Shown piece by piece: positions 35,801 through 63,037 of a stretch of 64,000 nucleotides of DNA (positions are counted from its first letter, which is position 1; each line of letters starts with the position of its first letter). Position numbers and translations under genes: made by a program. Below the pieces are notes generated by a model. That model did no database searches. It was not told where the DNA came from and was given only the letters and a program-made list of their open reading frames with translations. This stretch comes from Balanoglossus misakiensis (lineage: Eukaryota; Animalia; Hemichordata): NCBI GenBank assembly GCA_040954595.2, contig CM082590.2:868001-932000 (forward strand). The letters are read 5' to 3'.

Positions 35801-38138
35801 GGACATTTTAGAACTATCCGTCGATCTACAGAGTCTAGTGGATAACGTTCTTATGCGCATAGGCCTATCATGTGTTCTTCGCATCACAACAGAAATTTGT
35901 AAACAAACGAGGCTGTTGGGAAGCAACCATGGAAATTTTAGAACTATCCCTCGATCTACAGAGTCTAGTGGAAAAATTTCTTATGCGCATAGGCCTATCT
36001 ATGTGTTCTGCGCCTCACAACAGAATTCGGTAAACAAACGAGGCTGTTTGGAAGCAACCATGGAAATTTTAGAACTATCCGTCGATCTACAGAGTCTAGT
36101 GGAACACTTTCTTATGCGCATTGGCCTATCATGTGTTATGCGCATCACAACAGAATTTTGTAAACAAACGAGGCTTTGTTTGGAAGCAACCATGGAAATT
36201 TTAGATCTATCCGTCGATCTACAGAGTCTAGTGGAAAACTTTCTCATGCGCATAGGCCTATCATGTGTTATGCGCATCACAACATAATTTTGTAAACAAA
36301 CGAGGCTGTTTGGAAGCAACCATGGAAGTTTTAGAACTATCCGTCGATCTACAGAGTCTAGTGGAAAACTTTCTTATGCGCATAGGCCTATCATGTGTTG
36401 TGCGCATCACAACAGAATTTTGTAAACAAACGAGGCTTTGTTTGGAAGCAACCATGGAAATTTTAGAACTATCCGTCGATCTACAGAGTCTAGTGGAAAA
36501 CTTTCTTATGCGCATAGGCCTATCATGTGTTGTGCGCATCACAACAGAATTTTGTAAACAAACTAGGCTGTTTGGAAGCAACCATGGAAATTTTGGAACT
36601 ATCCGTCGATCTACAGAGTCTAGTGGAAAACTTTCTTATGCGCATTGGCCTATCATGTGTTATGCGCATCACAACAGAATTTTGTAAACAAACGAGGGTT
36701 TGTTTGGAAGCAACCATGGAAATTTAAGAACTATCCGTCGATCTACAGAGTCTAGTGGAAAACTTTCTTATGCGCATACGCCTATCATGTGTTATGCGCA
36801 TCATAACAGAATTTTGTAAACAAATGAGGCTGTTTGAAAGCAACCATGGAAATTTTAGAACTATCCGTCGATAAAAAGAGTCTAGTGGAAAACTTTCTTA
36901 TGCGCATAGGCCTATCTATGTGTTCTGCGCCTCACAACATAAATCGGTAAATTAAAGCTGCAAGCAGCGTTGGCGGGGCACAAGCGGTTCCCATGGTGAC
37001 CAGCAAATGCCACGCCTGTATCTGCTGGGGATACCAAGATATGGGAAAGTAGGTCAAAGGTCACCTGAGGTCACCCCAAATTTGGGCAAAAAAATTGGAC
37101 CCCATACTAGTCTAGATCCAACAAAAAACCAGACCCCTAGCCCTATTGGTTCGCCTGCAATTAGGTATGCACATAATTAATGAGGTCTTGTGTAAGACTC
37201 CATTATGTGCTCAATCCCCATAAAAGCCAAGGCTCTAACTGCTCTGGATGCTGAGATATGGGAAAGTAGATCAAAGGTCACCCAAGGTCACCCAAAATTA
37301 GGGCATACAATTTTGACCCCAGACTAGGCCATGTCCAACCAATACCAGACCTCTAGCCCTATTGGGTAGCATGGAATTAGATATGCAGAAAAATGATGTT
37401 TCAGAAATAGGTCAAAGGTCATTGCCAAAATTACGAAAATATTTGTGTCATGTCCTGGCAGCATTGGTACCCATGTCCACAAAATTCATGACTGTGGTGC
37501 TTTTACAAGAGGAGGTATGGGGAATATGCATATATAATTAGTTGTTTTAAAACTGGGTCAAAGGTCATGTAAAAATTACCCCGAAAAATTGTGACAACTT
37601 CCGGTCATATGATGACTCATATCCAAAAAAAGAATTTCCGTGCTGTCAACATTTTGGCTACAAAACGGAAATATCACTTTTCAATGGTTTTCCGAAAATC
37701 CAACATGGCCGCCATAGTGATCGACCAATCACAGTGCGCTTCGCAAACTTGATAGACATAGGTTAGGTGACCACATATCCCAAATCCCGAGACTCGGTAA
37801 CCGCTGGTTCTGGAGAAGAAGATTTTTAAAGTTTTAAGTAGTTTTTCAGAAAAACAATTGTAGCAAAAAAACTTTATATATGACGTCATGATTTTAATGG
37901 GGTAAAATGATGGACATAAGGTAGGCTACCTGCACACCAAATTTGAACTCGATCGGCCCAGTGGTTTTAGAGAAGGACTCATTTAACGATTTTCAAGAAA
38001 TCCAATATGGCCGCCAGGTCACGTGACTAATTAAATATTCACGAGCCACTGCACGTCTACTCATTGGCCCCTACCACCCTACCAAGTTTCAGCCCCCTAG
38101 GTGCTGCGGTTTTCCAGATCTACCTGGCCGAATTTCTC

Positions 38139-38173
38139 AGAAGAAGAAGAAGAATAATAATAATAATAAAGAA
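38139..38173 (+). repeat. (AGA)n(ATA)n microsatellite of element A; equivalent (AAAG)n/(AAAGAAG)n tracts precede 39605, 41034, 42487, 44172 and 45618
   Basis: Purine-rich simple repeats are directly visible next to every nesting junction. Confidence 0.9.
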
Positions 38174-41100
38174 TTAAAGCTGCAAGCAGCATTGTCCGGG
38201 CCCAAGCTCTATTATCTGATCTGATTATTAGATATGCACATAATTAATGAGTAGAGACATAATGCTGTGTTTTATCCCATGAAATATCAAGGTTATATCT
38301 ATGTTTGGTGCTGATATAGTGCAAAAGTAGGTCAAAGGTCATCTGAGGTCATCCACAATTTGGGCAGAAAATTTTGACCCATAGTGGTCCATGTCCAACA
38401 AAAACCAGACCTCTAGCCCTTTTGGTTAGCCCGGAATTAGGTATGCACATAAATAATGAGTAAAGCAGGTGTCACAGGTGACCCAAAACTTTGGCTTTTC
38501 ATTATGGCCCCATACCTCCAAACGCCAAGGCTGTACCTGCTTTGGATGCTGAGATATGCGAAAGTAGGTCAAAGGTCACCAGAGGTCACCCAACATTTGG
38601 GTAAAAAATTTTGACCCCATACTTGTCCTGTCCAACAAAAACAAAACCTCTAGATCTATCGGTTCGCCTGTAATTAGCTATGCACATAATTAATGAGGTC
38701 AGCAGGGGTCAAAGGGGTCATGAAAAGTAGCAAAATATTTTGATCACACACTAATCCACATACATCAAAAACCAAACTTATAGCCCTATTGGTTAGCCTG
38801 GAATTAGATATGCAGAAAAACGATGCGTCAAAAGTAGGTCAAAGGTCATTGCTAAAATTACCAAAATATTTATAGCTTATTCTTGTCATATGATGATTCA
38901 TATCCATAAAAAGAATTTCTGTGCTATCAATTTTTAAGCTAAAAAGGGAATTTTTACTTTTTAATCGTTTTTTACAAAATCCAATATGGCCGCCATAATC
39001 TTCGACCAATCACATTCCTCTTCGCAAACTTGATAGACATCTGTTTAATGACCACACACACCAAATCTTGTGACTCGGTTATTGCCGGTTCTTGAGAAGA
39101 AGATTTTTGAAGTTTTACTATGGTTTTTCGAAAATCCAATATGGCCGCCATAATCTTCAACCAATCACAATGATCTTCGCAAACTTGATAGACCTCAGTT
39201 AGGTGACCACATACCCCAAACCGCGTGACTCGGTTATCGCCGGTTCTGGAGAAGAAGATTTTTGAAATCTTGACCAGATTTCAGAAAAACAACTGTAGCA
39301 AAAAAACTGCAACATTGACAGCAAAATATCCAATTACAAAAATGATGGGCAGAAGGTACACTACCAGCACGCCAAATCTGAAGTAAATCTGACTTGTAGT
39401 TTCTGAGATCTGAGATTTGCATTTTTTCAGAAAATCCAATATGGCCGCCATGTCACGTTACAAATTAAAAATTCATGGGTTCAATGCACGACTACTCATT
39501 GACCTTGACCACTGTAGCAAGTGTGAGAACTGAACCTGCAGCGGTGTCTGAGATCTAGAGCGATAAAAAATGGACAGGAGAATAAAGAAAGAAAGAAAGA
39601 AAGATTAAAGCTGCAAGCAGCATTGTTGGGCCCAAGCGCTGATCTTGAATTATATATGCACAGTATGAATGAGAAGAAACAGAATTTTCTATCGCATGTA
39701 TTATCTCATGACATAACAAGGACTTATGTATTTTTGCTGCTGAAATAGAGTAAAGTAGGTCAAAGGTCACCTGAGGTCACCCAACATTTGGGCAAAAAAA
39801 TTTGACCCTTGCTGGGCCATGTCCAACAAAAACCAAAACTCTAGCTCTATTGGTTCGCGTGTAATTAGGTATGTGCATATTTAATGAGGTCAGCAGGTGT
39901 CACAGGTGACCCAAAAATTTGGCTTTACATTTAGGTCCCATCCTGCCAAATGCCAAGGCTGTATCTGCTCTGGATGTTGAGATATGTGAAAGTAGGTCAA
40001 AAGTCACCAGAGGTCACCCAACATTTGGGCAAAAAATTTTGAACCCATACTGGTCCATGTTCAACAAAAACCAAAGCTCTAGCTCTATTGGTTCGCCTGT
40101 AATTAGCTATGCACATAATTAATGAGGTAAGCAGAGGTCAAAGGTGTCATGGAAAGTAGCAAAATATTTTGATCACACACTAATCCACAAGCATCAAAAA
40201 CCAAACGTCTAGCCCTATAGGTTAGCCTGGAATTAGATATGCAGAAATAATAACGCGTGATAAGTAGGTCAAAGGTCATGTGAAAAATCGCCAAAAAATT
40301 GTAACATATCTTAGTCACCTGACGATTGATATCCATAAAAAGAATTTGTATGCTATCAATTTTTAGACTAGAAAAAGGAATTTCAATTTTTCGAAGCTTT
40401 TTACAAATTCCAATATGGCCGCCATAATCTTCGACCAATCACAATGCTCTTTGCAAACTTGATAGACATCAGTGTAGTGACCATACTCCCCGAATCTTGT
40501 GACTCGATTATCGCCCGTTCTGGAGAAGAAGATTTTTGGAGTTTTACTATAGTTTTTCGAAAATCCAATATGGCCGCCATAATCTTCGACCAATCACAAT
40601 GATCTTCGCAAACTTGATAGACCTCAGTTAGGTGACCACATACCCCAAACCGCGTGACTCGGTTATCGCCGGTTCTGGAGAAGAAGATTTTTGAAATCTT
40701 GACCAGATTTCAGAAAAACAACTGTAGCAAAAAAACTGCAACATTGACAGCAAAATATCCAATTACAAAAATTATGGGCAGAAGGTACACTACCAGCACG
40801 CCAAATCTGAAGTAAATCTGACTTGTAGTTTCTGAGATCTGAGATTTGCATTTTTTCAGAAAATCCAATATGGCCGCCATGTCACGTGACAAATTAAAAA
40901 TTCATGGGTTCAATGCACGACTACTCATTGACCTTGACCACTGTAGCAAGTTTGAGAACTGAACCTGCAGCGGTGTCTGAGATCTAGAGCGATAAAAAAT
41001 GGACAGGAGAATAAAGAAAGAAAGAAAGAAAGATTAAAGCTGCAAGCAGCATTGTCCGGGCCCAAGCTCTATTATCTGATCTGATATTAGATATGCACAT

Positions 41101-42486
41101 AATTAATGAGTAGAAACATAATGCTCTGTTTTATCCCATGAAATATCAAGGTTATATCTATGTTTGGTGTTGATATAGTGTTAAGTAGGTCAAAGGTCAC
41201 CCAGGGGTCACCCACAATTTGGGCAGAAAATTTTGACCCATAGTGGTCCATGTCCAACAAAAACCAGACCTCTAGCCCTTTTGGTTAGCCTGGAATTAGG
41301 TATGCACATAAATAATGAGTTAAGCAGGTGTCACAGGTGACCCAAAACTTTGGCTTTTCATTATGGCCCCATACCTCCAAACGCCAAGGTTGTATCTGCT
41401 GTGGATGTCGAGATATGCAAAAGTAGGTCAAAGGTCACCCGAGGTCACCCAACATTTGGGCAAAATATTTTGACCCCATACTGGTCCATGTATAACAAAA
41501 ACAAAACCTCTAGGTCTATTGGTTCATCATTAATTAGGTATGCGCATATTTAATGAGGTCACCAGAGGTCAAAGGGGTCATGAAAAGTAGCAAAATTTTT
41601 TGATCACATACAAATCCACATACATCAAAAACCAAACTTATAGCCCTATTGGTTAGCCTGGAATTAGATATGCAGAAAAATGATGCGTCAAAAGTAGGTC
41701 AAAGTTCATTGCCAAAATTACCAAAATATTTATAGCTTATTCTTGTCATATGATGATTCATATCCATAAAAAGAATTTCTGTGCTATCAATTTTTAGGCT
41801 AGAAAAGGAATTTTTACTTTTTAATCGTTTTTCACAAAATCCAATATGGCCGCCATAATCTTCGACCAATCACATTCACCTTCGCAAACTTGATAGACAT
41901 CTGTTTAATGACCACACACACCAAATCTTGTGACTCGGTAATCGCCCGTTCTGGAGAAGAAGATTTTTGAAGTTTTACTATGGTTTTTCGAAAATCCAAT
42001 ATGGCCGCCATAATCTTCGACCAATCACAATGATCTTCGCAAACTTGATAGACATCAGTTAGGTGACCACATACCCCAAACCGCGTGACTCAGTTATCAC
42101 CGGTTCTGGAGAAGAAGATTTTTGAAATTTAAGCCAGATTTCAGAAAAAAAATTGTAGCAAAAAAACTGCAACATTTACAGCAAAATATCCAATTACAAA
42201 AATGATGAGTAGAAGGTAGACTACCTGCACACCAAATTTGAAGTCGATCTGACTTGTAGTTTCTGAGATCTGAGATTTGCATTTTTTCAGAAAATCCAAT
42301 ATGGCCGCCAGGTCACGTGACTAATTAAAAATTCAAGGGTTCAATGCACATCTACTCATTGACCTTGACCACTGTAGCAAGTTTGAGAAGTGTACCTGCA
42401 GTGGTGTCTGAGATCTAGAGCGACAAAGAATTGACACAAGAATAAAGAAAGAAGAAAGAAGAAAGAAGAAAGAAGGAAAGACAGAA

Positions 42487-45400
42487 TTAAAGCTGCAAGC
42501 AGCATTGTCCGGGCCCAAGCTCTATTATCTGATCTGATTATTAGATATGCACATAATTAATGAGTAGAAACATAATGCAGTGTTTTATCCCATGAAATAT
42601 CAAGGTTATATCTATGTTTGGTGCTGATATAGTGTTAAGTAGGTCAAAGGTCACCCAGGGGTCACCCACAATTTGGGCAGAATATTTTGACCCATAGTGG
42701 TCAATGTCCAACAAAAACCAGACCTCTAGCCCTTTTGGTTAACCCGGAATTAGGTATGCACATAAATAATGCGTAAAGCAGGTGTCACAGGTGACCCCAC
42801 AACTTTGGCTTTTCATTATGGCCCCATACCTCCAAACGCCAAGGTTGTACCTGCTTTGGATGCTGAGATATGCAAAAGTAGGTCAAAGGTCATCTGAGGT
42901 CACCCAAAATTTGGGTAGAAAATTTTGACCCGTAGTGGTCCATGTATAACAAAAACAAAACCTCTAGGTCTATTGGTTCATCTGTAATTAGGTATGTGCA
43001 TATTTAATGAGTAAAGCAGGTGTCACAGGTGACCCAAAACTTTGGCTTTTCATTATGGCCCCATACCTCCAAACGCCAAGGCTGTATCTGGTGTGGATGT
43101 CGAGATATGCAAAAGTAGGTCAAAGGTCACCCGAGGTCACCCAACATTTGGGCAAAATATTTTGACCCCATACTGGTCCATGTATAACAAAAACAAAACC
43201 TCTAGGTCTATTGGTTCATCTGTAATTAGGTATATGCATATTTAATGAGGTCAGCAGAGGTCAAAGGGGTCATGAAAAGTAGCAAAATTTTTTGATCACA
43301 TACAAATCCACATACATCTAAAACCAAACTTATAGCCCTATTGGTTAGCCAGGAATTAGATATGCAGAAATAATAATGCATGATAAGTAGGTCAAAGGTC
43401 ATTGCCAAAATTACCAAAATATTTACAGCTTATTCTTGGCATATGATGATTCATATCCATAAAAAGAATTTCTGTGCTATCAATTTTTAGGCTAGAAACA
43501 GAATTTTTACTTTTTAATCGTTGTTCACAAAATCCAATATGGCCGCCAAAATCTTCGACCAATCACAATGATCTTCGCAAACTTGATAGACATCTGTTTA
43601 ATGACCACACACACCAAATCTTGTGACTCGGTTATCGCCGGTTCTTGAGAAGAAGATTTTTGAAATTTTACTAGGGTTTTTCGAAAATCCAATATGGCCG
43701 CCATAATCTTCCACCAATCACAATGATCTTCGCAAACTTGATAGACCTCAGTTTGGTGACCACATACCCCAAACCGCGTGACTCGGTTATCGCCGGTTCT
43801 GGAGAAGAAGATTTTTGAAATTTTGACCAGATTTCAGAAAAACAACTGTAGCAAAAAAACTGCAACATTGACAGCAAAATATCCAATTATAAAAATGATG
43901 GGTAGAAGGTAGACTACCTGCACACCAAGTTTGAAGTCGATCTGACTTGTAGTTTCTGAGATCTGAGATTTGCATTTTTTCAGAAAATCTAATATGGCCG
44001 CCAGGTCACGTGACTAATTAAAAATTCAAGGGTTCAATGCACATCTACTCATTGACCTTGACCACTGTAGCAAGTTTGAGAAGTGTACCTGCAGTGGTGT
44101 CTGAGATCTAGAGCGACAAAGAATTGACACAAGAATAAAGAAAGAAGAAAGAAGAAAGAAGGAAAGACAGATTAAAGCTGCAAGCAGCATTGTCCGGGCC
44201 CAAGCTCTATTATCTGATCTGATTATTAGATATGCACATAATTAATGAGTAGAAACATAATGCTGTGTTTTATCCCATGAAATATCAAGGTTATATCTAT
44301 GTTTGGTGTTGATATAGTGTTAAGTAGGTCAAAGGTCACCCAGAGGTCACCCACAATTTGGGCAGAAAATTTTGACCCATAGTGGTCCATGTCCAACAAA
44401 AACCAGACCTCTAGCCCTTTTGGTTAGCCCGGAATTAGGTATGCACATAAATAATTAGTTAAGCAGGTGTCACAGGTGACCCAAAACTTTGGCTTTTCAT
44501 TATGGCCCCATACCTCCAAACGCCAAGGCTGTATCTGGTGTGGATGTCGAGATATGCAAAAGTAGGTCAAAGGTCACCCGAGGTCACCCAACATTTGGGC
44601 AAAATATTTTGACCCCATACTGGTCCATGTATAACAAAAACAAAACCTCTAGGTCTATTGGTTCATCATTAATTAGGTATGCGCATATTTAATGAGGTCA
44701 GCAGAGGTCAAAGGGGTCATGAAAAGTAGCAAAAATTTTTGATCACATACAAATCCACATACATCAAAAACCAAACTTATAGCCCTATTGGTTAGCCTGG
44801 AATTAGATATGCAGAAAAATGATTCGTCAAAAGTAGGTCAAAGGTCATTGCCAAAATTACGAAAATATTTATAGCTTATTCTTGTCATATGATGATTCAT
44901 ATCCATAAAAAGAATTTCTGTGCTATCAATTTTTAGGCTAGAAAAGGAATTTATACTTTTTAATCGTTTTTCACAAAATCCAATATGGCTGCCATAATCT
45001 TCGACCAATCACATTCCTCTTCGCAAACTTGATAGACATCTGTTTAATGACCACACACACCAAATCTTGCGACTCGGTTATCGCCGGTTCTTGAGAAGAA
45101 GATTTTTGAAATTTTACTAGGGTTTTTCGAAAATCCAATATGGCCGCCATAATCTTCGACCAATCACAATGGTCTTCGCAAACTTGATAGACATCAGTTA
45201 GGTGACCACATACCCCAAACCCCGTGTCTCGGTTATCACCGGTTCTGGAGAAGAAGATTTTTGAAATTTAAGCCAGATTTCAGAAAAAAAATTGTAGCAA
45301 AAAAACTGCAACTTTGTCAGCATAATTTCCAATTACAAAAATGATTGACAGAAGGTAGTCTACCTGCACGCCAAATTTGAAGTTGATCTGACTTGTAGTT

Positions 45401-45726
45401 TCTGAGATCTGAGATTTGCATTTTTTCAGAAAATCCAAGATGGCCGCCAGGTCATGTGACTAATTAAAAATTCATGGGTTCAATGCACGACTACTCATTG
45501 ACCTTGACCACTGTAGCAAGTTTGAGAACTGTACCTGCAGTGGTGTCTGAGATCTAGAGCGACAAAGAATTGACAGAAGAATAAAGAAAGAAGAAAGAAA
45601 GAAAGAAGGAAAGACAGAAAAACCCCAACGAAACCAATAGGGCCCAAGCGCTGGCTTGCGCTTGGGCCCTAAAAAACCCCAACGAAACCAATAGGGCCCA
45701 AGCGCTGGTATGCGCTTGGGCCCTAA
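42487..45726 (-). mobile_element. Nested HINE-like element E (own sequence 42487-44171 + 45673-45726, 1739 bp; one extra internal unit of about 238 bp)
   Basis: Same termini; loop TGGTAT. Excision restores GACAGAAAAACCCC in D (2 A left + 3 A right). Confidence 0.82.
44172..45672 (-). mobile_element. Innermost, uninterrupted HINE-like element F (1501 bp)
   Basis: Runs from TTAAAGCTGCAAGCAGC to GCGCTTGGGCCCTAA and retains the empty target GACAGAAAAACCCC (A run 45618-45622). Excision restores the same sequence in E. Confidence 0.88.
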
Positions 45727-45939
45727 AAACCCCAACGAAACCAATAGGGCCCAAGCGCTGGTATGCGCTTGGGCCCTAAAAAACCCCAACGAAACCAATA
45801 GGGCCCAAGCGCTTGCTTGCGCTTGGGCCCTAAAAAACCCCAACGAAACCAATAGGGCCCAAGCGCTTGCTTGCGCTTGGGCCCTAAAAATTCCAACAAT
45901 ACCAATAGGGGCACAAGCCCGATAGGCTTGTGCCCCTAA
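45618..45939. repeat. Stack of six 52-54 bp units, each with a perfect 14-bp hairpin (stacked element termini)
   Basis: Five copies of TAGGGCCCAAGCGC-N6-GCGCTTGGGCCCTA and one of TAGGGGCACAAGCC-CGATA-GGCTTGTGCCCCTA (45906-45938). Confidence 0.97.
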
Positions 45940-48900
45940 TAAACGAGGCTGTTTGGAAGCAACCATGGAAATATTAGAACTATCCGTCGATCTACAGAGT
46001 CTAGTGGATAACTTTCTTATGCGCATAGGCCTATCATGTGTTATGCGCATCACAACAGAATTTTGTAAACAAATGAGGCTGTTTGGAAGCAACCATGGAA
46101 ATTTTAGAACTATCCGTCGATCTACAGAGTCTAGTGGATAACTTTCTTATGCGCATAGGCCTATCATGTGTTATGCGCATCACAACATAATTTTGTAAAC
46201 AAACGAGGCTTTGTTTGGAAGCAACCATGGAAATTTTAGAACTATCCGTCGATCTACAGAGTCTAGTGGAAAACTTTCTTATGCGCATAGGCCTATCATG
46301 TGTTATGCGCATCACAACAGAATTTTGTAAACAAACGAGGCTTTGTTTGGAAGCAACCATGGAAGTTTTAGAACTATCCGTCGATCTACAGAGTCTAGTG
46401 GAAAACTTTCTTATGCGCATAGGCCTATCATGTGTTATGCGCATCACAACAGAATTTTGTAAACAAACGAAGCTGTTTGGAAGCAACCATGGAATTTTTA
46501 GAACTATCCGTCGATCTACAGAGTCTAGTGGATAACGTTCTTATGGGCATAGGCCTATCATGTGTTCTTCGCATCACAACAGAATTTTGTAAACAAACGA
46601 GGCTTTGTTTGGAAGCAACCATTGAAGTTTTAGAACTATCCGTCGATCTACAGAGTCTAGAGGAAAACTTTCTTATGCGCATAGGCCTATCATGTGTTAT
46701 GCTCATCACAACCGAATTTTGTAAAAAAACGAGGCTTTGTTTGGAAGCAACCATAGACATTTTAGAACTATCCGTCGATCTACAGAGTCTAGTGGATAAC
46801 GTTCTTATGCGCATTGGCCTATCATGTGTTATGCACATCACAACAGAATTTTGTAAACAAACGAGGCTGTTTGGAAGCAACCATGGAAATTTTAGAACTA
46901 TCCGTCGATCTACAGGGTCTAGTGGAAACTTTCTTATGCGCATAGGCCTATCATGTGTTATGCGCATCACAACAGAATTTTGTAAACAAACGAGGCTTCG
47001 TTTGGAAGCAACCATGGACATTTTAGAACTATCCGTCGATCTACAGAGTCTAGTGGATAACGTTCTTATGCGCATAGGCCTATCATGTGTTCTTCGCATC
47101 ACAACAGAATTTTGTAAACAAACGAGGCTGTTGGGAAGCAACCATGGAAATTTTAGAACTATCCCTCGATCTACAGAGTCTAGTGGAAAAAATTCTTATG
47201 CGCATAGGCCTATCTATGTGTTCTGCGTCTCACAACAGAAATCGGTAAATAAACGAGGCTGTTTGGAAGCAACCATGGAAATTTTAGAACTGTCCCTCGA
47301 TCTACAGAGTCTAACTTTCTTATGCGCATAGGCCTATCTATGTGTTCTGCGTCTCACAACAGAATTCGGTAAACAAACAAGGCTGTTTGGAAGCAACTAT
47401 GGACATTTTAGAACTATCCGTCGATCTACAGAGTCTAGTGGAAAACTTTCTTATGCGCATAGGCCTATCTATGTGTTCTGCGCCTCACAACAGAATTCGG
47501 TAAACAAACGAGGCTGTTTGGAAGCAACCATGGAAATTTTAAAACTATCCGTCGGTCTACAGAGTCTAGTGGATAACGTTCGTATGCGCATAGGCCTATC
47601 ATGTGTTATGCGCATCACAACAGAATTTTGTAAAAAAACGAGGCTTTGTTTGGAAGCAACCATGGACATTTTAGAACTATCCGTCGATCTACAGGGTCTA
47701 GTGGAAACTTTCTTATGCGCATAGGCCTATCATGTGTTATGCGCATCACAACAGAATTTTGTAAACAAACGAGGCTTCGTTTGGAAGCAACCATGGACAT
47801 TTTAGAACTATCCGTCGATCTACAGAGTCTAGTGGATAACGTTCTTATGCGCATAGGCCTATCATGTGTTCTTCGCATCACAACAGAATTTTGTAAACAA
47901 ACGAGGCTGTTGGGAAGCAACCATGGAAATTTTAGAACTATCCCTCGATCTACAGAGTCTAGTGGAAAAATTTCTTATGCGCATAGGCCTATCTATGTGT
48001 TCTGCGCCTCACAACAGAATTCGGTAAACAAACGAGGCTGTTTGGAAGCAACCATGGAAATTTTAAAACTATCCGTCGATCTACAGAGTCTAGTGGAAAA
48101 CTTTCTTATGCGCATAGGCCTATCTATGTGTTCTGCGCCTCACAACAGAAATCGGTAAATAAACGAGGCTGTTTGGAAGCAACCATGGGAATTTTAGAAC
48201 TATCCGTCGATCTACAGACTCTAGTGGAAAACTTTCTTATGCGCATAGGCCTATCTATGTGTTCTGCGCCTCACAACAGAATTCGGTAAACAAACGAGGC
48301 TGTTTGGAAGCAACCATGGAAATTTTAAAACTATCCGTTGATCTACAGAGTCTAGTGGAAAACTTTCTGATGCGCATAGGCCTATCATGTGTTCTGCGTC
48401 TCACAACAGAAATCGGTAAATAAACGAGGCTGTTTGGAAGAAACCATGGAAATTTTAGAACTATCCCTCGATCTACAGAGTCTAGTGGAAAACTTTCTTA
48501 TGCGCATAGGCCTATCTATGTGTTCTGCGCCTCACAACAGAATTCGGTAAACAAACGAGGCTGTTTGGAAGCAACCATGGAAATTTTAGAACTATCCGTC
48601 GATCTACAGAGTCTAGTGGAAAACTTTCTTATGCGCATAGGCCTATCATGTGTTATGCGCATCACAACAGAATTTTGTAAACAAACGAGGCTGTTTTTAA
48701 GCAACCATGGACATTTTAGAACTATCCGTCGATCTACAGAGTCTAGTGGAAAACTTTCTTATGCGCATAGGCCTATCTATGTGTTCTGCGCCTCACAACA
48801 GAATTCGGTAAACAAACGAGGCTGTTTGGAAGCAACCATGGAAATTTTAAAACTATCCGTCGATCTACAGAGTCTAGTGGATAACGTTCTTATGCGCATA

Positions 48901-51900
48901 GGCCTATCATGTGTTCTTCGCATCACAACAGAATTTTGTAAACAAACGAGGCTGTTGGGAAGCAACCATGGAAATTTTAGAACTATCCCTCGATCTACAG
49001 AGTCTAGTGGAAAAATTTCTTATGCGCATAGGCCTATCTATGTGTTCTGCGCCTCACAACAGAATTCGGTAAACAAACGAGGCTGTTTGGAAGCAACCAT
49101 GGAAATTTTAAAACTATCCGTCGATCTACAGAGTCTAGTGGAAAACTTTCTTATGCGCATAGGCCTGTCTATGTGTTCTGCGCCTCACAACAGAATTCGG
49201 TAAACAAACGAGGCTGTTTGGAAGCAACCATGGAAATTTTAAAACTATCCGTTGATCTACAGAGTCTAGTGGAAAACTTTCTGATGCGCATAGGCCTATC
49301 ATGTGTTCTGCGTCTCACAACAGAAATCGGTAAATAAACGAGGCTGTTTGGAAGCAACCATGGAAATTTTAGAACTATCCCTCGATCTACAGAGTCTAGT
49401 GGAAAACTTTCTTATGCGCATAGGCCTATCTATGTGTTCTGCGCCTCACAACAGAATTCGGTAAACAAACGAGGCTGTTTGGAAGCAACCATGGAAATTT
49501 TAGAACTATCCGTCGATCTACAGAGTCTAGTGGAAAACTTTCTTATGCGCATAGGCCTATCATGTGTTATGCGCATCACAACAGAATTTTGTAAACAAAC
49601 GAGGCTGTTTGGAAGCAACCATGGAAATTTTAAAACTATCCGTCGATCTACAGAGTCTAGTGGATAACGTTCTTATGCGCATAGGCCTATCATGTGTTCT
49701 TCGCATCACAACAGAATTTTGTAAACAAACGAGGCTGTTGGGAAGCAACCATGGAAATTTTAGAACTATCCCTCGATCTACAGAGTCTAGTGGAAAAATT
49801 TCTTATGCGCATAGGCCTATCTATGTGTTCTGCGCCTCACAACAGAATTCGGTAAACAAACGAGGCTGTTTGGAAGCAACCATGGAAATTTTAAAACTAT
49901 CCGTCGATCTACAGAGTCTAGTGGAAAACTTTCTCATGCGCATAGGCCTATCATGTGTTATGCGCATCACAACAGAATTTTGTAAACAAACGAGGCTGTT
50001 TTTAAGCAACCATGGAAATTTTAGAATTATCCGTCGATCTACAGAGTCTAGTGGAAAACTTTCTAATGCGCATAGGCCTATCATGTGTTATGCGCATCAC
50101 AACAGAATTTTGTAAACAAACGAGGCTGTTTGGAAGCAACCATGGAAGTTTTAGAACTATCCGTCGATCTACAGAGTCTAGTGGAAAACTTTCTTATGCG
50201 CATTGGCCTATCATGTGTTATGCACATCACAACAGAATTTTGTAAACAAACGAGGGTTTGTTTGGAAGCAACCATGGAAATTTAAGAACTATCCGTCGAT
50301 CTACAGAGTCTAGTGGAAAACTTTCTTATGCGCATAGGCCTATCATGTGTTATGCGCATCACAACAGAAATTTGTAAACAAACGAGGCTGTTTGGAGCAA
50401 CCATGGAAATTATAGAACTATCCGTCGATCTACAGAGTCTAGTGGAAAACTTTCTTATGCGCATAGACTTATCATGTGTTATGCGCATCACAACAGAATT
50501 TTGTAAACAAACGAGGCTGTTTGGAAGCAACCATGGAAATTTTAGAACTATACGTCGATCTACAGAGTCTAGTGGAAAACTTTCTGATGCGCATTGGCCT
50601 ATCATGTGTTATACGCATCACAACAGAATTTTGTAAACAAACGAGGCTTTGTTTGGAAGCAACCATGGAAATTTTAGAACTATCCGTCGATCTACAGAGT
50701 CTAGTGGAAAACTTTCTGATGCGCATAGGCCTATCATGTGTTATGCGCATCACAACAGAAATTTGTAAACAAACGAGGCTGTTTGGAGCAACCATGGAAA
50801 TTATAGAACTATCCGTCGATCTACAGAGTCTAGTGGAAAACTTTCTTATGCGCATAGACTTATCATGTGTTATGCGCATCACAACAGAATTTTGTAAACA
50901 AACGAGGCTGTTTGGAAGCAACCATGGAAATTTTAGAACTATACGTCGATCTACAGAGTCTAGTGGAAAACTTTCTGATGCGCATTGGCCTATCATGTGT
51001 TATACGCATCACAACAGAATTTTGTAAACAAACGAGGCTTTGTTTGGAAGCAACCATGGAAATTTTAGAACTATCCGTCGATCTACAGAGTCTAGTGGAA
51101 AACTTTCTGATGCGCATAGGCCTATCATGTGTTATGCGCATCACAACAGAATTTTGTAAACAAACGAGGCTGTTTTTAAGCAACCATGGAAATTTTAACT
51201 CTATCCGTCGATCTACAGAGTCTAATGGAAAATGTTCTGAGGCGCATAGGCCTATCATGTGTTATGCGCATCACAACAGAATTTTGTAAACAAACGAGGC
51301 TGTTTTTAAGCAACCATGGAAATTTTAGAATTATCCATCGATCTACAGAGTCTAGTGGATAACTTTCTTATGCGCATAGGCCTATCATGTGTTATGCGCA
51401 TCACAACAGAATTTTGTAAACAAACGAGGCTGTTTTTAAGCAACCATGGACATTTTAGAACTATCCGTCGATCTACAGAGTCTAGTGGAAAACTTTCATA
51501 TGCACATAGGCCTATCATGTGTTATGCGCATCACAACAGAATTCGGTAAACAAACGAGGCTGTTGGGAAGAAACCATGGAAATTGTAAAACTATCCGTCG
51601 ATCTACAGAGTCTAGTGGAAAACTTTCTTATGCGCATAGGCTTATCTATGTGTTCTGCGCCTCACAGCATAAATCGGTAAATGAACGAGGCTGTTTGGAA
51701 GCAACCATGGAAATTTTAGAACTATCCGTCGATCTACAGTCTAGTGGAAAACTTTCTTATGCGCATAGGCCTATCTATGTGTTCTGCGCCTCACAACAGA
51801 ATTCGGTAAACAAACGAGGCTTTGTTTGGAAGCAACCATGGACATTTTAGAACTATCCGTCGATCTACAGAGTCTAGTGGATAACGTTCTTATGCGCATA

Positions 51901-54900
51901 GGCCTATCATGTGTTCTTCGCATCACAACATAATTTTGTAAACAAACGAGGCTGTTGGGAAGCAACCATGGAAATTTTAGAACTATCCCTCGATCTACAG
52001 AGTCTAGTGGAAAAATTTCTTATGCGCATAGGCCTATCTATGTGTTCTGCGCCTCACAACAGAATTCGGTAAACAAACGAGGCTGTTTGGAAGCAACCAT
52101 GGAAATTTTAAAAGTATCCGTCGATCTACAGAGTCTAGTGGAAAACTTTCTTATGCGCATAGGCCTATCTATGTGTTCTGCGCCTCACAACAGAATTCGG
52201 TAAACAAACGAGGCTGTTTGGAAGCAACCATGGAAATTTTAAAACTATCCGTCGATCTACAGAGTCTAGTGGAAAACTTTCTTATGCGCATAGGCCTATC
52301 TATGTGTTCTGCGCCTCACAACAGAAATCGGTAAATAAACGACGCTGTTTGGAAGCAACCATGGAAATTTTAGAACTATCCGTCGATCTACAGAGTCTAG
52401 TGGAAAACTTTCTTATGCGCATTGGCCTATCTATGTGTTCTGCGCCTCACAACAGAATTCGGTAAACAAACGAGGCTGTTTGGAAGCAACCATGGAAATT
52501 TTAAAACTATCCGTCGATCTACAGGGTCTAGTAGAAACTTTCTTATGCGCATAGGGCTATCATGTGTTATGCGCATCACAACAGAATTTTGTAAACAAAC
52601 GAAGCTGTTTGGAAGCAACCATGGAATTTTTAGAACTATCCGTCGATCTACAGAGTCTAGTGGAAAACTTTCTTATGCGCATTGGCCTATCATGTGTTAC
52701 GCGCAATACAACAGAATTTTGTAAAAAACGAGGCTTTGTTTGGAAGCAACCATGGACATTTTAGAACTATCCGTCGATCTACAGAGTCTAGTGGATAACG
52801 TTCTTATGCGCATAGGCCTATCATGTGTTCTTCGCATCACAACATAATTTTGTAAACAAACGAGGCTGTTGGGAAGCAACCATGGAAATTTTAGAACTAT
52901 CCCTCGATCTACAGAGTCTAGTGGAAAAATTTCTTATGCGCATAGGCCTATCTATGTGTTCTGCGCCTCACAACAGAATTCGGTAAACAAACGAGGCTGT
53001 TTGGAAGCAACCATGGAAATTTTAAAACTATCCGTCGATCTACAGAGTCTAGTGGAAAACTTTCTTATGCGCATAGGCCTATCTATGTGTTCTGCGCCTC
53101 ACAACAGAAATCGGTAAATAAACGAGGCTGTTTGGAAGCAACCATGGAAATTTTAGAATTATCCGTCGATCTACAGAGTCTAGTGGAAAACTTTCTGATG
53201 CGCATAGGCCTATCTATGTGTTCTGCGTCTCACACCAGAATTCGGTAAACAAACGAGGCTGTTTGGAAGCAACCATGGAAATTTTAGAACTATCCGTCGA
53301 TCTACAGAGTCTAGTGGAAAACTTTCTTATGTGCATAGGCCTATCTATGTGTTCTGCGCCTCACAACAGAATTCGGTAAACAAACGAGGCTGTTTGGAAG
53401 CAACCATGGAAATTTTAAAACTATCCGTCGATCTACAGAGTCTAGTGGAAAACTTTCTTATGCGCATAGGCCTATCTATGTGTTCTGCGCCTCACAACAG
53501 AAATCGGTAAATAAACGAGGCTGTTTGGAAGCAACCATGGAAATTTTAGAACTATCCGTCGATCTACATAGTCTAGTGGAAAACTTTCTTATGCGCATAG
53601 GCCTATCTATGTGTTCTGCGTCTCACAACAGTATTCGGTAAACAAACGAGGCTGTTTGGAAGCAACCATGGAAATTTTAGAACTATCCGTCGATCTACAG
53701 GGTCTAGTGGAAAACTTTCTTATGCGCATAGGCCTATCATGTGTTCTGCGCCTCACAACAGAAATCGGTAAATAAACGAGGCTGTTTGGAGCAACCATGG
53801 AAATTTTAGAACTATCCGTCGATCTACAGAGTCTAGTGGAAAACTTTCTTATGCGCATTGGCCTATCATGTGTTATGCGCATCACAACAGAATTTTGTAA
53901 ACAAACGAGGCTGTTTTTAAGCAACCATGGACATTTTAGAACTATCCGTCGATCTACAGAGTCTAGTGGAAAACTTTCTTGTGCGCATAGGCCTATCTAT
54001 GTGTTCTGCCCCTCACAACAGAATTCGGTAAACAAACAAGGCTGTTTGGAAGCAACCATGGAAATTTAAGAACTATCCGTCGATCTACAGAGTCTAGTGG
54101 AAAACTTTCTTATGCGCATAGGCCTATTATGTGTTATGCGCATCACAACAGAAATTTGTAAACAAACGAGGCTGTTTGGAGCAACCATGGAAATTATAGA
54201 ACTATCCGTCGATCTACAGAGTCTAGTGGAAAACTTTCTGATGCGCATAGGCCTATCATGTGTTATGCGCATCACAACAGAATTTTGTAAACAAACGAGG
54301 CTGTTTTTAAGCAACCATGGAAATTTTAACTCTATCCGTCGATCTACAGAGTCTAATGGAAAATGTTCTGAGGCGCATAGGCCTATCATGTGTTATGCGC
54401 ATCACAACAGAAATTTGTAAACAAACGAGGCTGTTTTTAAGCAACCATGGAAATTTTAGAATTATCCATCGATCTACAGAGTCTAGTGGATAACTTTCTT
54501 ATGCGCATAGGCCTATCATGTGTTATGCGCATCACAACAGAATTCGGTAAACAAACGAGGCTGTTGGGAAGAAACCATGGAAATTGTAAAACTATCCGTC
54601 GATCTACAGAGTCTAGTGGAAAACTTTCTTATGCGCATAGGCTTATCTATGTGTTCTGCGCCTCACAGCATAAATCGGTAAATGAACGAGGCTGTTTGGA
54701 AGCAACCATGGAAATTTTAGAACTATCCGTCGATCTACAGAGTCTAGTGGAAAACTTTCTTATGCGCATAGGCCTATCTATGTGTTCTGCGCCTCACAAC
54801 AGAATTCGGTAAACAAACGAGGCTGTTTGGAAGCAACCATGGAAATTTTAAAACTATCCGTCGATCTACAGAGTCTAGTGGAAAACTTTCTGATGCGCAT

Positions 54901-55028
54901 AGGCCTATCATGTGTTCTGCGTCTCACAACAGAAATCGGTAAATAAACGAGGCTGTTTGGAAGCAACCATGGAAATTTTAGAACTATCCGTCGATCTACA
55001 GAGTCTAGTGGAAAACTTTCTTATGCGC
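45940..55028. repeat. Satellite array continued (about 69 monomers, same orientation and phase)
   Basis: Same 130-132 bp monomer; resumes in register after the nested insertion. Confidence 0.99.
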
Positions 55029-55760
55029 TGGTCCGTTGAGAAATAGTTTATAGCTATTGGAAGCCCGCCCTCACATACCGGAAATGAGCACTTATATGTG
55101 ACCTCTTATGAACCCTGTTTTTACCGCCATTTCTGTTTACACGTCGTGAACACTGTACGGACGCTGTTCCTGTGAAACCTGTTGGTTTACTGTTTTGTTC
55201 GCCGATTTACTGTTCTGTAGTTACAGTGGAGTCTTGCCAAAGAAGTAAGAACTCTTTGCTATTGTTTTTAGATGTTTCAGATGTTAGATCATGTTGTTTA
55301 GACTGTTCGAGAAATGCTATCAAATATATCAGACTGTCAGTTCAGTTGATTATGGCCGTTTGCACGCCTGTCATCCGTTTTTCAGTATCGAAAATATGAT
55401 CGGTTTTCGTGAATTACTGATAGAGACTCTGTTGAATCAGTGAATTTAGACTGCCCGTTTTCAGATGTTATTCAGAGCGATGGACATGAACCGGACTGTC
55501 CGTGTCAGAGGACAATTTCAGTGTTGAATGCAAACAGCTATCTGGCCGTGTCGATTTTGTGTTTAGTTACACGAACGAGGATTGATGGTCACGCTTGTGT
55601 AGAGGCGTGTTTTGGATTCACCTGTACTTATTGTGAATTGTTGTGATTGTTACGTTTTCAGATCGAATAAAGTAAAGTATCTCAGAGCGAGTTTATTTAA
55701 CTTATACGGTTACCAAGACTCTGTTGCCTGTTGTTTGGTCCACATTCCCTGAGGGTCGCA
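55029..55760 (+). repeat. 5' LTR (732 bp)
   Basis: TGGTCCGTTG...GGGTCGCA; matches 61092-61823 at offset 6063; AATAAA at 55666-55671. Confidence 0.96.
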
Positions 55761-55810
55761 TCATTCGATTTCTGTAAACTGCTAACCCGGATCCTAGAGA
55801 GTGTGGATAT

Positions 55811-56056
55811 ATGATGGCGGACACTGAGAATCAAACGAAGGAAGCAAAGAAGAAAAGAAGGAATGCCAAATCGTCACTGACTCGTCACGGTAATGGCCTG
55901 AGAACTCTGATAGACAATAACCGTCCCAGAAATGAAATTGATCAGTCACTGCAGAAGTTTATTGAAGTATATGATGACCTGATTCAGAAACATGAACAAT
56001 ATATATTTAGTATATTGATGATGATGAAGAGTTTGAACATGAAGAAATATGGGTAG
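55811..56056 (+). pseudogene. N-terminal gag segment, out of frame with the main polyprotein
   Basis: MADTENQTKEAKKKRRNAKSSLTR...KHEQYIFS continues plausibly as IDDDEEFEHEEIWVEECQQKFISMKSQ in the frame of the long ORF if 2 bp (AT) are removed near 56011-56015. Confidence 0.7.
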
Positions 56057-56082
56057 AAGAATGTCAACAGAAATTCATAAGT

Positions 56083-59000
56083 ATGAAAAGTCAAGCAATA
56101 GATTACATGAAAACAGAAGTCACAATGAACACTGATGATGTAGCGAATGCTAATGCTGAGACAGAAGACAACAATGAGAATGAAGATGCACATGAAGTGA
56201 TTGAAAACATTGCTAGTGCCCCAAACCCTGCAACAGACAATACTGGACATGATGATGATGTGATTGTACAACATGCTGAACTGCCCGCTAAGCCCCACCT
56301 GTCTTGCAGTTTTAAAATGGAAAAGCCAAAACTTCCGAAGTTTACAGGTGATGTCCGTGAATATTTCACATTCCGAGCTGATTTCAAGCACATGGTTGAC
56401 AAGAGATATAGTAAACGTGATGCTGTTGCACTGCTGCGCACCTGTTTGCAAGGTAAACCACTTGACCTGATCAAAGGCTTAGGCACAGATTATGATGCTG
56501 CATGGGAATACCTAGACTCAATTTACGGGGATCCACGGTTTGTAGCAGACATTATTATGCAAGATATTGTGAAGTTCAAGATGTTACGAGATGATGAAGA
56601 CGGTCGCTTTTGTGAATTAGTACACCTGGTGAGACGCAGTTACAATGTTTTGAGAGAAGTAGGCAGACCACATGATATGGACAACAATCACGTTCTGGCA
56701 ATGATAGAAAAGAAAATGAGTGCTGATGACCGGAAAGTTTGGTGTCGTTTACTAGAGACTGAAAACCAGCCTGCATCAATGGAAGCGCTTATGGAGTGGA
56801 TGACACAAGAAATGAAATCCCGCATGAGAGCAACTGCCCCATTACGTAATCCAGCGCAAAATACACGTATGACAGCAGTCAACTACATATCAGAGACCAA
56901 AGCTGCAACGCATTACAAGTGTTGGATATGCCAGTCATCCGATCACTGGGTAGATCAGTGTAGAAAGTTGATGTCTATGCCCCCGGATGAACGATTGAAG
57001 ATGATAAAAGATGGTCATGCATGTTTCAGCTGTCTGAAGAAAGCCGGTAAGAACCACACTGCAAAAACCTGTACTAGACGCCGTCAATGTCAAGAAATGA
57101 ACAACGGTATGCGATGTAACCTGTTCCACCATCCCCTGCTACACACTGGTAGAAAACCTGTCACAGCAGCTAGGTCAGACAACAACACTGTTGGCGTGGC
57201 AACCATATGCAGCAAAGAGACCCTACTGCCAGTCGTCTTAGTAAATGTGATTGGTAACCAAAGTAGACAGCAGACCGCCAATGTACTGTTAGATTCTGGT
57301 GCACAGATCAGTCTGATCAAGACATCACTAGCAGAAAGTCTGCAGCTCAGAGGTAAAAATGTGAATACTACTATTACGAAGGTAGGAGGTGAAGAGGAAG
57401 AGCTCTGCACAAAGATGTATGCCGTCCCTGTCCGCCCCATTAACAAGAAGCAGACTTTCACTGTCAAAGCAGTTGGCATCCCCTCAATCAGTGGAGACAT
57501 AACGGAAGTGAATGTTGTTGAACTGTCACAGCAACTGAACATCAAGCCATATGAACTCCACCGAGGAAGTGGATCAGTCGACCTGTTGATTGGCATCGAT
57601 CATGCTAAGATGCATGCTGGAAAAACTGTAGAAACTGATAACCTGATAGCCCGTCAGTCACCACTGGGTTGGGTGATATTTGGCGCACAAACTGGAACGC
57701 AGTCTAGAAACTGTCAAGTACTGCATGTCAAGTTCTCAGCACCTGTTGACTTGACTGATTTCTGGATGACTGAAGCCATGGGAGTAGCGGTGAAGCCATG
57801 TACATGTAAACCGCATAACCTGAGTCCTGCAGAAGCAGAAGAAGCAAGAATTATTGATGAATCCTGTATGAAAGTTGGAAACCAGTGGCTTATACCGTAT
57901 CCTTGGAAGAAGAATCCGAGTCTGCTACCTGATAACAGAATCCAAGCTGAGAAGAAACTGTATGCAACTGAGAGACGTCTGATGAGAAACCCTGATCACG
58001 CAGAAGCCTATGACAGTCAGATCAAAGAAATGGTAGACATGCAGTTTGCCCGGAAATTATCAGATGAAGAATCAGAGAACCGCACTGGTCCTGTTCACTA
58101 TATTGCGCATCATGAAGTCCTGAAACGAGAAAGTAAAAGTACGCCGATCCGTATTGTTTTCAACTCGTCAGCTGTATATGAAGGACATTGTTTGAATGAC
58201 TACTGGATGAAAGGTCCAGATCTGCTCAACAATCTGTTCGGAGTCATGCTGAGATTCCGTGAAAATGAAACCGCAGTTATTGGTGACATATCGAAGATGT
58301 ACCACAGAATCCTGATACCAGAAACTGATCAGCATGTACACAGATTTCTATGGAGAAATTTGGATGTCAGTAAGAAACCTGAAACCTATGTGAAAACTGT
58401 TCTCACGTTTGGAGATAAACCTGCACCCGCCATGGCTCAGACAGCCCTGATACGTACAGCGGAGGAAGGACAGAAGAAGTATCCTGAAGCCGCACGTATA
58501 CTGAAAGAAAACACATACATGGATGATATTTGTGATTCTGTCCATGCTGTAGATGAAGCCCAGAAACTGACAAAGCAGATAGATGAAGTCCTGGCTGAAG
58601 GTGGATTCAAAGTGAAAGGATGGATGTCAAACATGCCCCTGAATGAAGAGCCACCCGATGCAGATGAACCGAAACTGAAGACTCTCCCAAATGTAACAGA
58701 AGAAAAAGTACTAGGAACAGTATGGGAGCCCAGAGAAGATGTTCTCAGCTTCAAAGTTAGCCCAAACTTTGACAGATATGTAAACCCAGAAGAACCTGAT
58801 GATCTGAAGCTGACAAAGAGAAGAATTCTGAGTGAAGTTGCACGTATTTTCGACCCTATTGGCTTTGCCACAGCTTTCCTGATTCGGGCAAAGATAGGTA
58901 TGCAACAGTTATGGCAACAAGGTTTTGACTGGGATGAGGAGTTACCAGAGCAATTACAGTACCAATGGATGAAGCTGTTCAGAGAGATGAATGAGCTAAA

Positions 59001-61116: not shown

Positions 61117-61823
61117 CTATTGGAAGCCCGCCCTCACATACCGGAAATGAGCACTTATATGTGACCTCTTATGAACCCTGTTTTTACCGCCATTTCTGTT
61201 TACACGTCGTGAACACTGTACGGACGCTGTTCCTGTGAAACCTGTTGGTTTACTGTTTTGTTCGCCGATTTACTGTTCTGTAGTTACAGTGGAGTCTTGC
61301 CAAAGAAGTAAGAACTCTTTGCTATTGTTTTTAGATGTTTCAGATGTTAGATCATGTTGTTTAGACTGTTCGAGAAATGCTATCAAATATATCAGACTGT
61401 CAGTTCAGTTGATTATGGCCGTTTGCACGCCTGTCATCCGTTTTTCAGTATCGAAAATATGATCGGTTTTCGTGAATTACTGATAGAGACTCTGTTGAAT
61501 CAGTGAATTTAGACTGCCCGTTTTCAGATGTTATTCAGAGCGATGGACATGAACCGGACTGTCCGTGTCAGAGGACAATTTCAGTGTTGAATGCAAACAG
61601 CTATCTGGCCGTGTCGATTTTGTGTTTAGTTACACGAACGAGGATTGATGGTCACGCTTGTGTAGAGGCATGTTTTGGATTCACTTGTACTTATTGTGAA
61701 TTGTTGTGATTGTTACGTTTTCAGATCGAATAAAGTAAAGTATCTCAGAGCGAGTTTATTTAACTTATACGGTTACCAAGACTCTGTTGCCTGTTGTTTG
61801 GTCCACATTCCCTGAGGGTCGCA
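61092..61823 (+). repeat. 3' LTR (732 bp)
   Basis: By eye it differs from the 5' LTR only at 61670 (A vs G at 55607) and 61685 (T vs C at 55622). Confidence 0.96.
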
Positions 61824-63037
61824 TGCGCATAGGCCTATCTATGTGTTCTGCGCCTCACAACAGAAATCGGTAAATAAAGGAGGCTGTTTGGAAGCAACCA
61901 TGGAAATTTTAGAACTATCCGTCGATCTACAGAGTCTAGTGGAAAACTTTCTGATGCGCATAGGCCTATCATTTGTTATGCGCATCACAACAGAATTTTG
62001 TAAACAAACGAGGCTGTTTTTAAGCAACCATGGAAATTTAAACTCTATCCGTCGATCTACAGAGTCTAATGGAAAATGTTCTGAGGCGCATAGGCCTATC
62101 ATGTGTTCTGCGTCTCAGAACAGAATTCGGTAAATAAACGAGGCTGTTTGGAAGCAACCATGGAAATTTTAGAACTATCCGTCGATCTACAGAGTCTAGT
62201 GGAAAACTTTCTTATGCGCAGAGGCCTATCTATGTGTTCGGCGCCTCACAACAGAATTCGGTAAACAAACGAGGCTGTTTGGAAGCAACCATGGAAATTT
62301 TAGAACTATCCGTCGATCTACAGAGTCTAGTGGAAAACATTCTTATGCGCATTGGCCTATCATTTGTTATGCGCATCACAACAGAATTTTGTAAACAAAC
62401 GAGGCTTTGTTTGGAAGCAACCATGGAAATTTTAGAACTATCCGTCGATCTACAGAGTCTAGTGGATAACTTTCTTATGCGCATAGGCCTATCATGTGTT
62501 ATGCGCATCACAACATAATTTTGTAAACAAACGAGGCTGTTTTTAAGCAACCATGGAAATTTTAGAACTATCCGTCGATCTACAGAGTCTAATGGAAAAT
62601 TTTCTGATGCGCATAGGCCTATCATGTGTTCTGCGTCTCAGAACAGAATTAGGTAAATAAATGAGGCTGTTTGGAAGCAACCATGGAAATTTTAGAAATA
62701 TCCGTCGATCTACAGAATCTAGTGGAAAACTTTCTTATGCGCATAGGCTTATCATGTTTTCTGCGCCTCACAACAGAATTCGGTAAACAAACGAGGCTGT
62801 TTGGAAGCAACCATGGGAATTTTAGAACTATCCGTCGATCTACAGAGTCGGAAAACATTCTTATGCGCATTGGCCTATCATGTGTTATGCGCATCACAAC
62901 AGAATTTTGTAAACAAACGAGGCTTTGTTTGGAAGCAACCATGGAAATTTTAGAACTATCCGTCGATCTACAGAGTCTAGTGGATAACTTTCTTATGCGC
63001 ATAGGCCTATCATGTGTTATGCGCATCACAACAGAAT
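61824..63037. repeat. Satellite array, last about 9 monomers in the window
   Basis: Same monomer with more private variants (e.g. deletion GAGTCGGAAAAC near 62850). Ends abruptly at ...CACAACAGAAT. Confidence 0.97.

Follow-up and report, generated by a model that had tools for sequence, protein, structure and literature searches.

Helitron2 rolling-circle transposons insert between TTTT and T or C without a target-site duplication (TSD; Bao & Jurka 2013, PMC3627910). In the account given there, their non-autonomous members have a 5' hairpin with a 5' asymmetric terminal inverted repeat (ATIR), a 3' ATIR 20-30 bp from the end and before a hairpin, and ATIRs of 8-15 bp. Elements of the DINE-1/HINE group (PMC4067079, PMC2374699; oyster Cg_HINE, PMC7492417) are described with a 5' subterminal inverted repeat (subTIR) and its own inverted repeat, a microsatellite, central tandem repeats, a 3' subTIR and a 3' palindrome; they have T-rich targets, no TSD, and no coding capacity. 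Here, we describe six elements of this kind in 64,000 nt of DNA from the hemichordate Balanoglossus misakiensis (GenBank assembly GCA_040954595.2, contig CM082590.2, positions 868,001 to 932,000 of the forward strand; this whole stretch is the window, and all positions are counted within it). The six elements are non-autonomous, non-coding members of the HLE2 (Helitron2/HINE/DINE-1) type, and they form a real nest from copy A (outermost) to copy F (innermost). Both ends of all six copies are preserved, and the order of insertion is last in, first out.

Stacked or nested termini have been reported in related systems. In FoHeli1, a Helitron2-like element of Fusarium oxysporum, the first 31-85 nt are repeated, which has been attributed to self-insertion near the 5' end (PMC5148889); as many as five 5' termini occur in a single copy, and in one isolate the repeat affects 8 of the 15 longer copies (PMC13342296). 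Maize Helitron1 elements show a preference for inserting near or inside other Helitrons, with multiple termini derived from nests (PMC3288121). A preliminary description of the present locus knew of no precedent for strict self-targeting, a statement that these Fusarium and maize accounts correct. The main texts on FoHeli1 describe several 5' ends for each 3' end, with self-insertion inferred, and their supplementary tables or figures may hold balanced cases; the Balanoglossus nest, in contrast, has six balanced 3' ends and bodies, base-exact junctions, and one step that crosses families (B into A). The maize nests, as described, have Helitron1 ends, an AT target, and no fixed internal site. 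For non-autonomous Helitron2 elements, the text of PMC3627910 describes no nested stack, and copy A sits in the surrounding satellite at TTAT^T rather than at TTTT. The word “nested” is absent from the accessible text of two of the DINE-1/HINE papers and used only in other senses in the third, while the accessible part of PMC12001565 covers tandem arrays only. In the open-access literature we found no HINE nest of several balanced layers at one fixed linker position, which is weak evidence of absence. Self-insertion is thus already known for the Helitron2 group, and what is new here is that both ends of all six copies survive, so that the nesting can be read base by base.

The nest spans positions 36952-45939, and all of its elements lie on the minus strand. 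Searching both strands of the whole window, we recovered six exact copies of a 17-nt left motif (starting at 36952, 38174, 39605, 41034, 42487, and 44172) and six hairpin ends (at 45672, 45726, 45779, 45833, 45887, and 45939), exactly where the preliminary description had placed them, and none elsewhere. That description took the hairpins for right ends. Because the elements run on the minus strand, the orientation is the reverse: the hairpins of the stack belong to 5' ends, from which the nest site lies ~54 nt inwards. In silico excision from the inside out, followed by alignment, was the check proposed at the time; it yields six complete elements of 1.27-1.74 kb (A 1274, B 1485, C 1483, D 1506, E 1739, and F 1501 bp), whose terminus is ambiguous by one base. 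The parts of the locus are as follows.

1-36951, no strand: 130-bp satellite array on the left side of the nest, in which copy A sits (Tandem Repeats Finder: period 130, 282.7 copies)
36952-38173, minus: copy A, outermost, of a different family (~71% identity to B-F); 3' end and body up to the split T5 run; its own 11-bp subTIR is shared only with the last tail
38174-39604, minus: copy B, 3' end and body; mosaic (3' part D/F-like, 5' part C-like)
39605-41033, minus: copy C, 3' end and body; distinct 3' subfamily with 113 private sites and a 12-bp subTIR
41034-42486, minus: copy D, 3' end and body
42487-44171, minus: copy E, 3' end and body, with one extra internal unit of ~238 bp
44172-45672, minus: copy F, innermost and uninterrupted, 1501 bp
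44177-44188, minus: copy F 3' palindrome, a short stem-loop identical in all six copies (predicted 4-bp stem, about -3 kcal/mol)
44196-44205, minus: copy F 3' subTIR
45577-45617, minus: copy F pyrimidine-rich microsatellite, directly 3' of the target run
45618-45622, minus: copy F intact T5 run, the one open self-insertion site of the nest
45638-45671, minus: copy F 5' hairpin, a 14-bp stem of the subTIR and its inverted repeat (predicted -18.9 kcal/mol)
45673-45726, minus: copy E 5' end, 54 bp
45727-45779, minus: copy D 5' end, 53 bp
45780-45833, minus: copy C 5' end, 54 bp
45834-45887, minus: copy B 5' end, 54 bp, identical to that of copy C
45888-45939, minus: copy A 5' end, 52 bp
45940-55028, no strand: satellite array, resuming in phase right of the nest

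The order of the layers follows from agreement between the two sides of the nest. Each excision restores a run of five A in front of the hairpin (A 2+3, B 1+4, C 1+4, D 2+3, and E 1+4). The tails fall into the classes {A}, {B,C}, {D,E}, and {F}, which are also the classes of the body ends, and copy A's subTIR recurs only in the outermost tail. These splits, the mirroring of hairpin loop types by body types, and the sequence shared by the outermost ends alone had all been claimed beforehand, and all are confirmed. Among the 120 possible pairings of the five outer tails with bodies, 12 fit the A-run sums, 8 fit the classes, and 2 fit both. These two are the nested order and its B/C swap, indistinguishable from each other since the B and C tails are identical. 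The link between tail and body classes is itself derived from this locus, where only F is contiguous and only A is independently checked, through its own subTIR. Removal of the whole nest restores one 131-bp satellite unit, and the resulting 20-nt junction occurs in 45 of 253 other matched units. The satellite unit is therefore intact, without TSD or loss of target, and the empty sites are likewise restored without duplication at all six junctions, as the preliminary description had held for such elements. Recombination of a circle into a resident copy, or a rolling-circle concatemer, is rejected as the origin of this arrangement, as either would yield head-to-tail copies and not a nest.

The anatomy of the copies matches that published for DINE-1/HINE and Helitron2 elements (PMC4067079, PMC2374699, PMC7492417, PMC3627910, and PMC11417382, as far as these sources describe it). 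Read along the minus strand, a copy comprises a 14-bp 5' hairpin, a 15-nt spacer, the T5 run, a pyrimidine-rich microsatellite, 155-bp/~238-bp central repeats, a 3' subTIR, and a 3' palindrome. The inverted repeats are asymmetric and 10-12 bp long; they start at nt 4 (nt 3 with the alternative end), and the 3' copy ends 23-24 nt before the element end. All six copies have the 14-bp hairpin stem, which differs in sequence between A and B-F and pairs fully in both. The six junctions lie in T-rich DNA, three at T^T and three at T^C. Judged by length only, the nest has five stop-to-stop frames of at least 100 amino acids, the longest of 155, and the longest open frame in the family loci is 336 amino acids. 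The copies thus combine the HLE2 traits (asymmetric inverted repeats, 5' hairpin, 3' palindrome, and T-rich insertion without TSD) with those of DINE-1/HINE (a microsatellite near the 5' end, central tandem repeats, and no coding capacity). The earlier assignment to Helentron/HINE-type elements is supported at the level of HLE2; Helentrons in the strict sense would have an autonomous partner with the same ends that encodes RepHel plus an endonuclease. Compared with DINE-1/HINE as described, the subTIRs measure 10-12 bp and the 3' stem only 4-5 bp; the 12-nt palindrome, identical in the six copies, has a weak predicted stem of 4 bp versus 7-11 nt in DINE-1. A Helitron1 identity is rejected, as inverted repeats are present and the 5' TC, 3' CTRR, and A^T target of that group are not found; so is a miniature inverted-repeat or other cut-and-paste terminal-inverted-repeat element, as the repeats are asymmetric and no junction shows a duplication. 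Nor do A and B-F form a single HINE family under the rule of Thomas 2014 (at least 11 bp of identical subTIR): their subTIRs differ, and body identity is ~71%.

All copies differ from one another by 3-29%, with pairwise identities of 87-97% among B-F and ~71% between A and B-F. Similarity is unevenly distributed along them. Copies B and C differ in 3 of 474 columns on the 5' side and in 56 of 302 on the 3' side, D and E differ in 1 of 274 columns on the 5' side, and the 3' part of C is 13-19% different from both of its neighbours. Informative sites that conflict with one another (678 of 2145 pairs are incompatible) occur in clusters, a degree of clustering that shuffling reached in 0 of 10,000 trials. 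Since the copies are distinct and mosaic, and none matches its host throughout, they come from separate donor elements and are not self-duplicates; self-duplication in cis is rejected on the same full-length comparison. Over 1474 columns, copies B, D, E, and F carry 8-19 private substitutions each, which points to recent insertion. We considered, and did not adopt, the idea that incoming copies were guided by homology to the resident most like them. Shared 5' parts are seen for B/C and D/E but for none of the pairs A/B, C/D, and E/F, and like types would come to lie side by side by chance in ~20% of cases (6 of 30 orders, counted by hand).

Related families occur in other animals. A motif scan of metagenome contigs gave 97 matches, of which 20 were dropped by eye as chance (no subTIR context) and 4 as duplicates, leaving 73 3' ends; one of these matches, L046, rested on a microsatellite only and has a 43-nt flank. 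Seven motif matches in viral contigs were all judged chance. The relatives share with the Balanoglossus family only the layout and the terminal ~30 bp, in which the 17-nt motif is identical and the whole 93% alike (36952-36981 versus L008-L103); the bodies have no similarity. Such conservation of ~30 bp across families of different animals suggests that this end is a strongly conserved transposase signal. Seven of the 73 3' ends lie directly after a hairpin end (head-to-tail), three lie in the linker in the same orientation, following a family body end and microsatellite (L059, L095, and L102), one lies in the linker in reverse (L037), and 62 lie at unrelated A/T-rich sites. In all, 11 ends fall within about 70 nt of a relative's 5' end; a rough background rate, taken from 3 such features in 101 kb of flanking sequence, would predict ~0.15. 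By source, 68 ends come from one similarly named assembly set (7 self-associated) and 5 from other contigs (4 self-associated); the contigs are built from short reads, and the counts carry the bias of such assemblies. In the relatives, self-association is thus enriched but far from strict, and targeting is a preference. The strict self-targeting proposed at first is not supported, given that copy A lies in satellite and that most relatives' 3' ends are at unrelated sites.

Among the relatives, L011 has a stack of two 5' ends, and L103 and L102 lie 1282 bp apart on one contig, an arrangement that would fit a two-layer nest. End-to-end junctions are base-exact in L011, L029, L054, L078, L099, and L103 and include 3 extra nt in L065; they match the expectation for a circular intermediate or for insertion right at an end. 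The head-to-tail cases may represent either insertion at an end or a concatemer.

The five inner insertions all occupy the T5 run that follows the 5' hairpin after 15 nt. With the element read as starting at the stem, their junctions are TTTT^T (two) and TTTT^C (three), the only two registers that the published Helitron2 rule permits on a T5-C run. The 15-nt spacing is the same in A and in B-F, though 4 of the 15 spacer bases differ. With all A or T runs of at least 5 treated as equal targets, a null that is too simple, five hits in this run have P ~1e-5 to 1e-8. We built a target profile from 53 non-self flanks of the relatives (other species, one flank only) and combined it with a strict TTTT^Y rule. 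In this model, with a 29-nt profile, each of the six copies has 29-42 TTTT^Y sites, and the linker run comes out on top every time, with 52-97% of the predicted weight. This agrees with the earlier proposal that each copy brings its own good target. An insertion splits this target by separating its T4 from the T-rich tract, which explains why only the innermost copy was used. Sites that match the self site in score have a density of 0.14-0.80 per kb in the relatives' flanks, and a hand calculation assuming one copy per 20-100 kb puts the sequence-only self-fraction at roughly 0.3-13% for B-E. In simulations with one open site per locus, depth six was reached in 0 of 20 runs at a self-fraction of 2-4% (5,000 or 50,000 insertions), in 2 of 10 runs at 10%, and in 9 of 10 at 20%. 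Given a predicted 0.3-13% against a need of ~10-20%, an extra bias is likely, although not proven.

We lean towards an origin by five successive rolling-circle insertions, from different donors, into the hairpin-adjacent T5 run, with extra bias from a hairpin-bound transposase. An unseen RepHel transposase would presumably act in trans on a target of T4 followed by T-rich microsatellite, and five such events would produce the same-orientation nesting. Each insertion would part T4 from the microsatellite in the old copy and bring an intact pair in the new one, leaving only the innermost open. Of the two components of this proposal, the self-renewing target is likely, and end-guided targeting is plausible. 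We are least sure of the latter step: sequence alone is probably too little for depth six, and a transposase seated at the resident 5' hairpin likely hands incoming copies to the adjoining T run. The conserved spacing between hairpin and T5 in both families, the one cross-family step, and the enrichment on both sides of the hairpin in the relatives favour such a hairpin-bound transposase.

Other observations count against this reading. The T5-6 runs at the tail-to-tail junctions likewise adjoin a hairpin, yet received no insertion in the nest, and same-orientation linker insertions make up only 3 of 73 ends (4%) in the relatives, below what the simulation needs; these two points argue for caution. 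The relatives have only their terminal ~30 bp in common with the nest and are known from short-read contigs. Under the strict TTTT rule with the 29-nt profile, sequence alone gives five hits with P = 0.26 (innermost copy) or 0.04 (whole growing nest), and none of 359 T4 sites in the 46 kb of surrounding satellite reaches the weakest self-site score; tethering may thus be unnecessary. Within the window and the contigs examined, no autonomous partner was seen. Helraiser, a Helitron1 element, is reported without clustering near donor sites (PMC4778049), and the accessible reports show circular intermediates and no local hopping for it (PMC4778049, PMC5876387); these findings might carry over to an HLE2 nest by analogy.

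In a rival reading, insertion would have been sequential but governed by ordinary sequence preference, with no recognition of the hairpin: no T-rich target within the element is better than the linker, and the target-poor satellite around it offers no other good one, so that insertions reaching this region fall into the linker. We regard this as unlikely, yet it deserves serious consideration: the self run ranks first in every copy under the strict rule, junction runs lacking a T-rich 3' tract were never hit, and 62 of 73 relatives' ends lie at plain A/T-rich sites. Its success depends on the rule and window chosen. Shorter profiles or a looser TWWT rule lower the probability of five innermost-run hits to between 3e-2 and 3e-6, and the looser 5' rule is the better supported, as TTTT occurs in only 1 of 4 independent 5' flanks of relatives and the outer site is TTAT; the strict rule is not the family's rule, and the estimated self-fraction is marginal to too low for depth six. 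With values from 0.26 to 3e-6, the sequence-only model neither proves nor excludes extra targeting. It is improbable that the nest was partly built elsewhere, with ready-made composites such as D-E-F moved as a unit by their outer ends and fewer than five events at this locus. Composite or multi-terminus Helitrons have been proposed to transpose in maize (PMC3288121) and Fusarium (PMC5148889), and the near-identical 5' sides of B/C and D/E would suit such an origin, but in the published model transposition terminates at the first 3' end, which leaves the ends unbalanced, whereas this nest is balanced, and self-insertion at the same run would still be required each time. One or two true insertions followed by independent tandem amplification, through unequal exchange, of 1.4-kb bodies and 54-bp tails is very improbable and already largely refuted. 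Both blocks do resemble tandem arrays, B/C and D/E are near-identical at one end, and the host DNA is itself a satellite; against this, numbers, class sizes, and A-run registers all mirror each other (2 of 120 pairings), the divergent 3' part of copy C is no duplicate of its neighbours, and copy A belongs to a different family. Least probable of all is an assembly artefact in a repeat-rich region. The nest is known from assembled sequence and contigs only, with no read or contig seen spanning it: among contigs of four sequencing runs aligned to copy F, with 45576-45672 skipped as repeat, none spans even one copy. The six copies nevertheless differ, having substitutions and indels of their own, and neither complementary A-run registers nor a satellite in phase would be expected from a mis-join.

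In organism A, whose runs are possibly from the assembly's own sample, the same alignments reveal a large family of great diversity (8313 and 4202 contigs aligned, the microsatellite and 5' end being skipped). A 543-nt contig from organism B (runs X4/X5) has 4 differences from the 3' part of copy F (44172-44712); contamination, diet, and horizontal transfer are indistinguishable here, and the organism B runs (57 contigs aligned) were not used as evidence.

A wider proposal, which we offer tentatively and hold to be rather doubtful, is that HLE2 transposases dock on a resident 5' hairpin, even that of a sister family, and insert in the first T run behind it. This would be an end-guided, self-renewing safe harbour in which nests grow without harm to the host, general across animal HINEs and missed where short-read assemblies collapse the stacks. 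If end-guided targeting is true, a eukaryotic rolling-circle element would have in this run a neutral landing site that renews itself. We found no biochemical demonstration of target choice by a Helitron2/Helentron transposase in the literature examined, as far as its text was accessible, and the nest defines a test substrate of ~100 bp (hairpin, 15-nt spacer, T5, and microsatellite). With its balanced ends and exact junctions, it also provides the structure assumed in the self-insertion model for Fusarium, which had only stacks of 5' ends to deduce it from. For annotation, such stacks resemble two tandem arrays, of 1.4 kb and 54 bp, with no relation to each other, and they offer a route from transposon to satellite-like DNA.

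Most of the window is the 130-bp satellite (1-36939, 45941-55028, and 61823-63037), for which sequence comparison found no relation to the element. Several unit variants of 130-132 bp occur in 1-36939, and near 20 kb the GC skew falls and the A/T skew rises, which suggests two array sub-domains. At 63038 the satellite stops abruptly, and non-satellite sequence continues to 64000. A 261-amino-acid frame at 63005-63790 has no Pfam match; the 63038-64000 sequence may be a decayed DIRS-type retroelement, which it seems to resemble. Finally, a BEL/Pao long terminal repeat (LTR) retrotransposon lies on the plus strand at 55029-61823, inserted in the 130-bp satellite with a 5-bp TSD. Its two 732-bp LTRs differ at 2 positions, and its 1701-amino-acid stop-to-stop frame matches Peptidase_A17, DUF5641, DUF1759, reverse transcriptase, and integrase domains; the element is apparently very young and intact.

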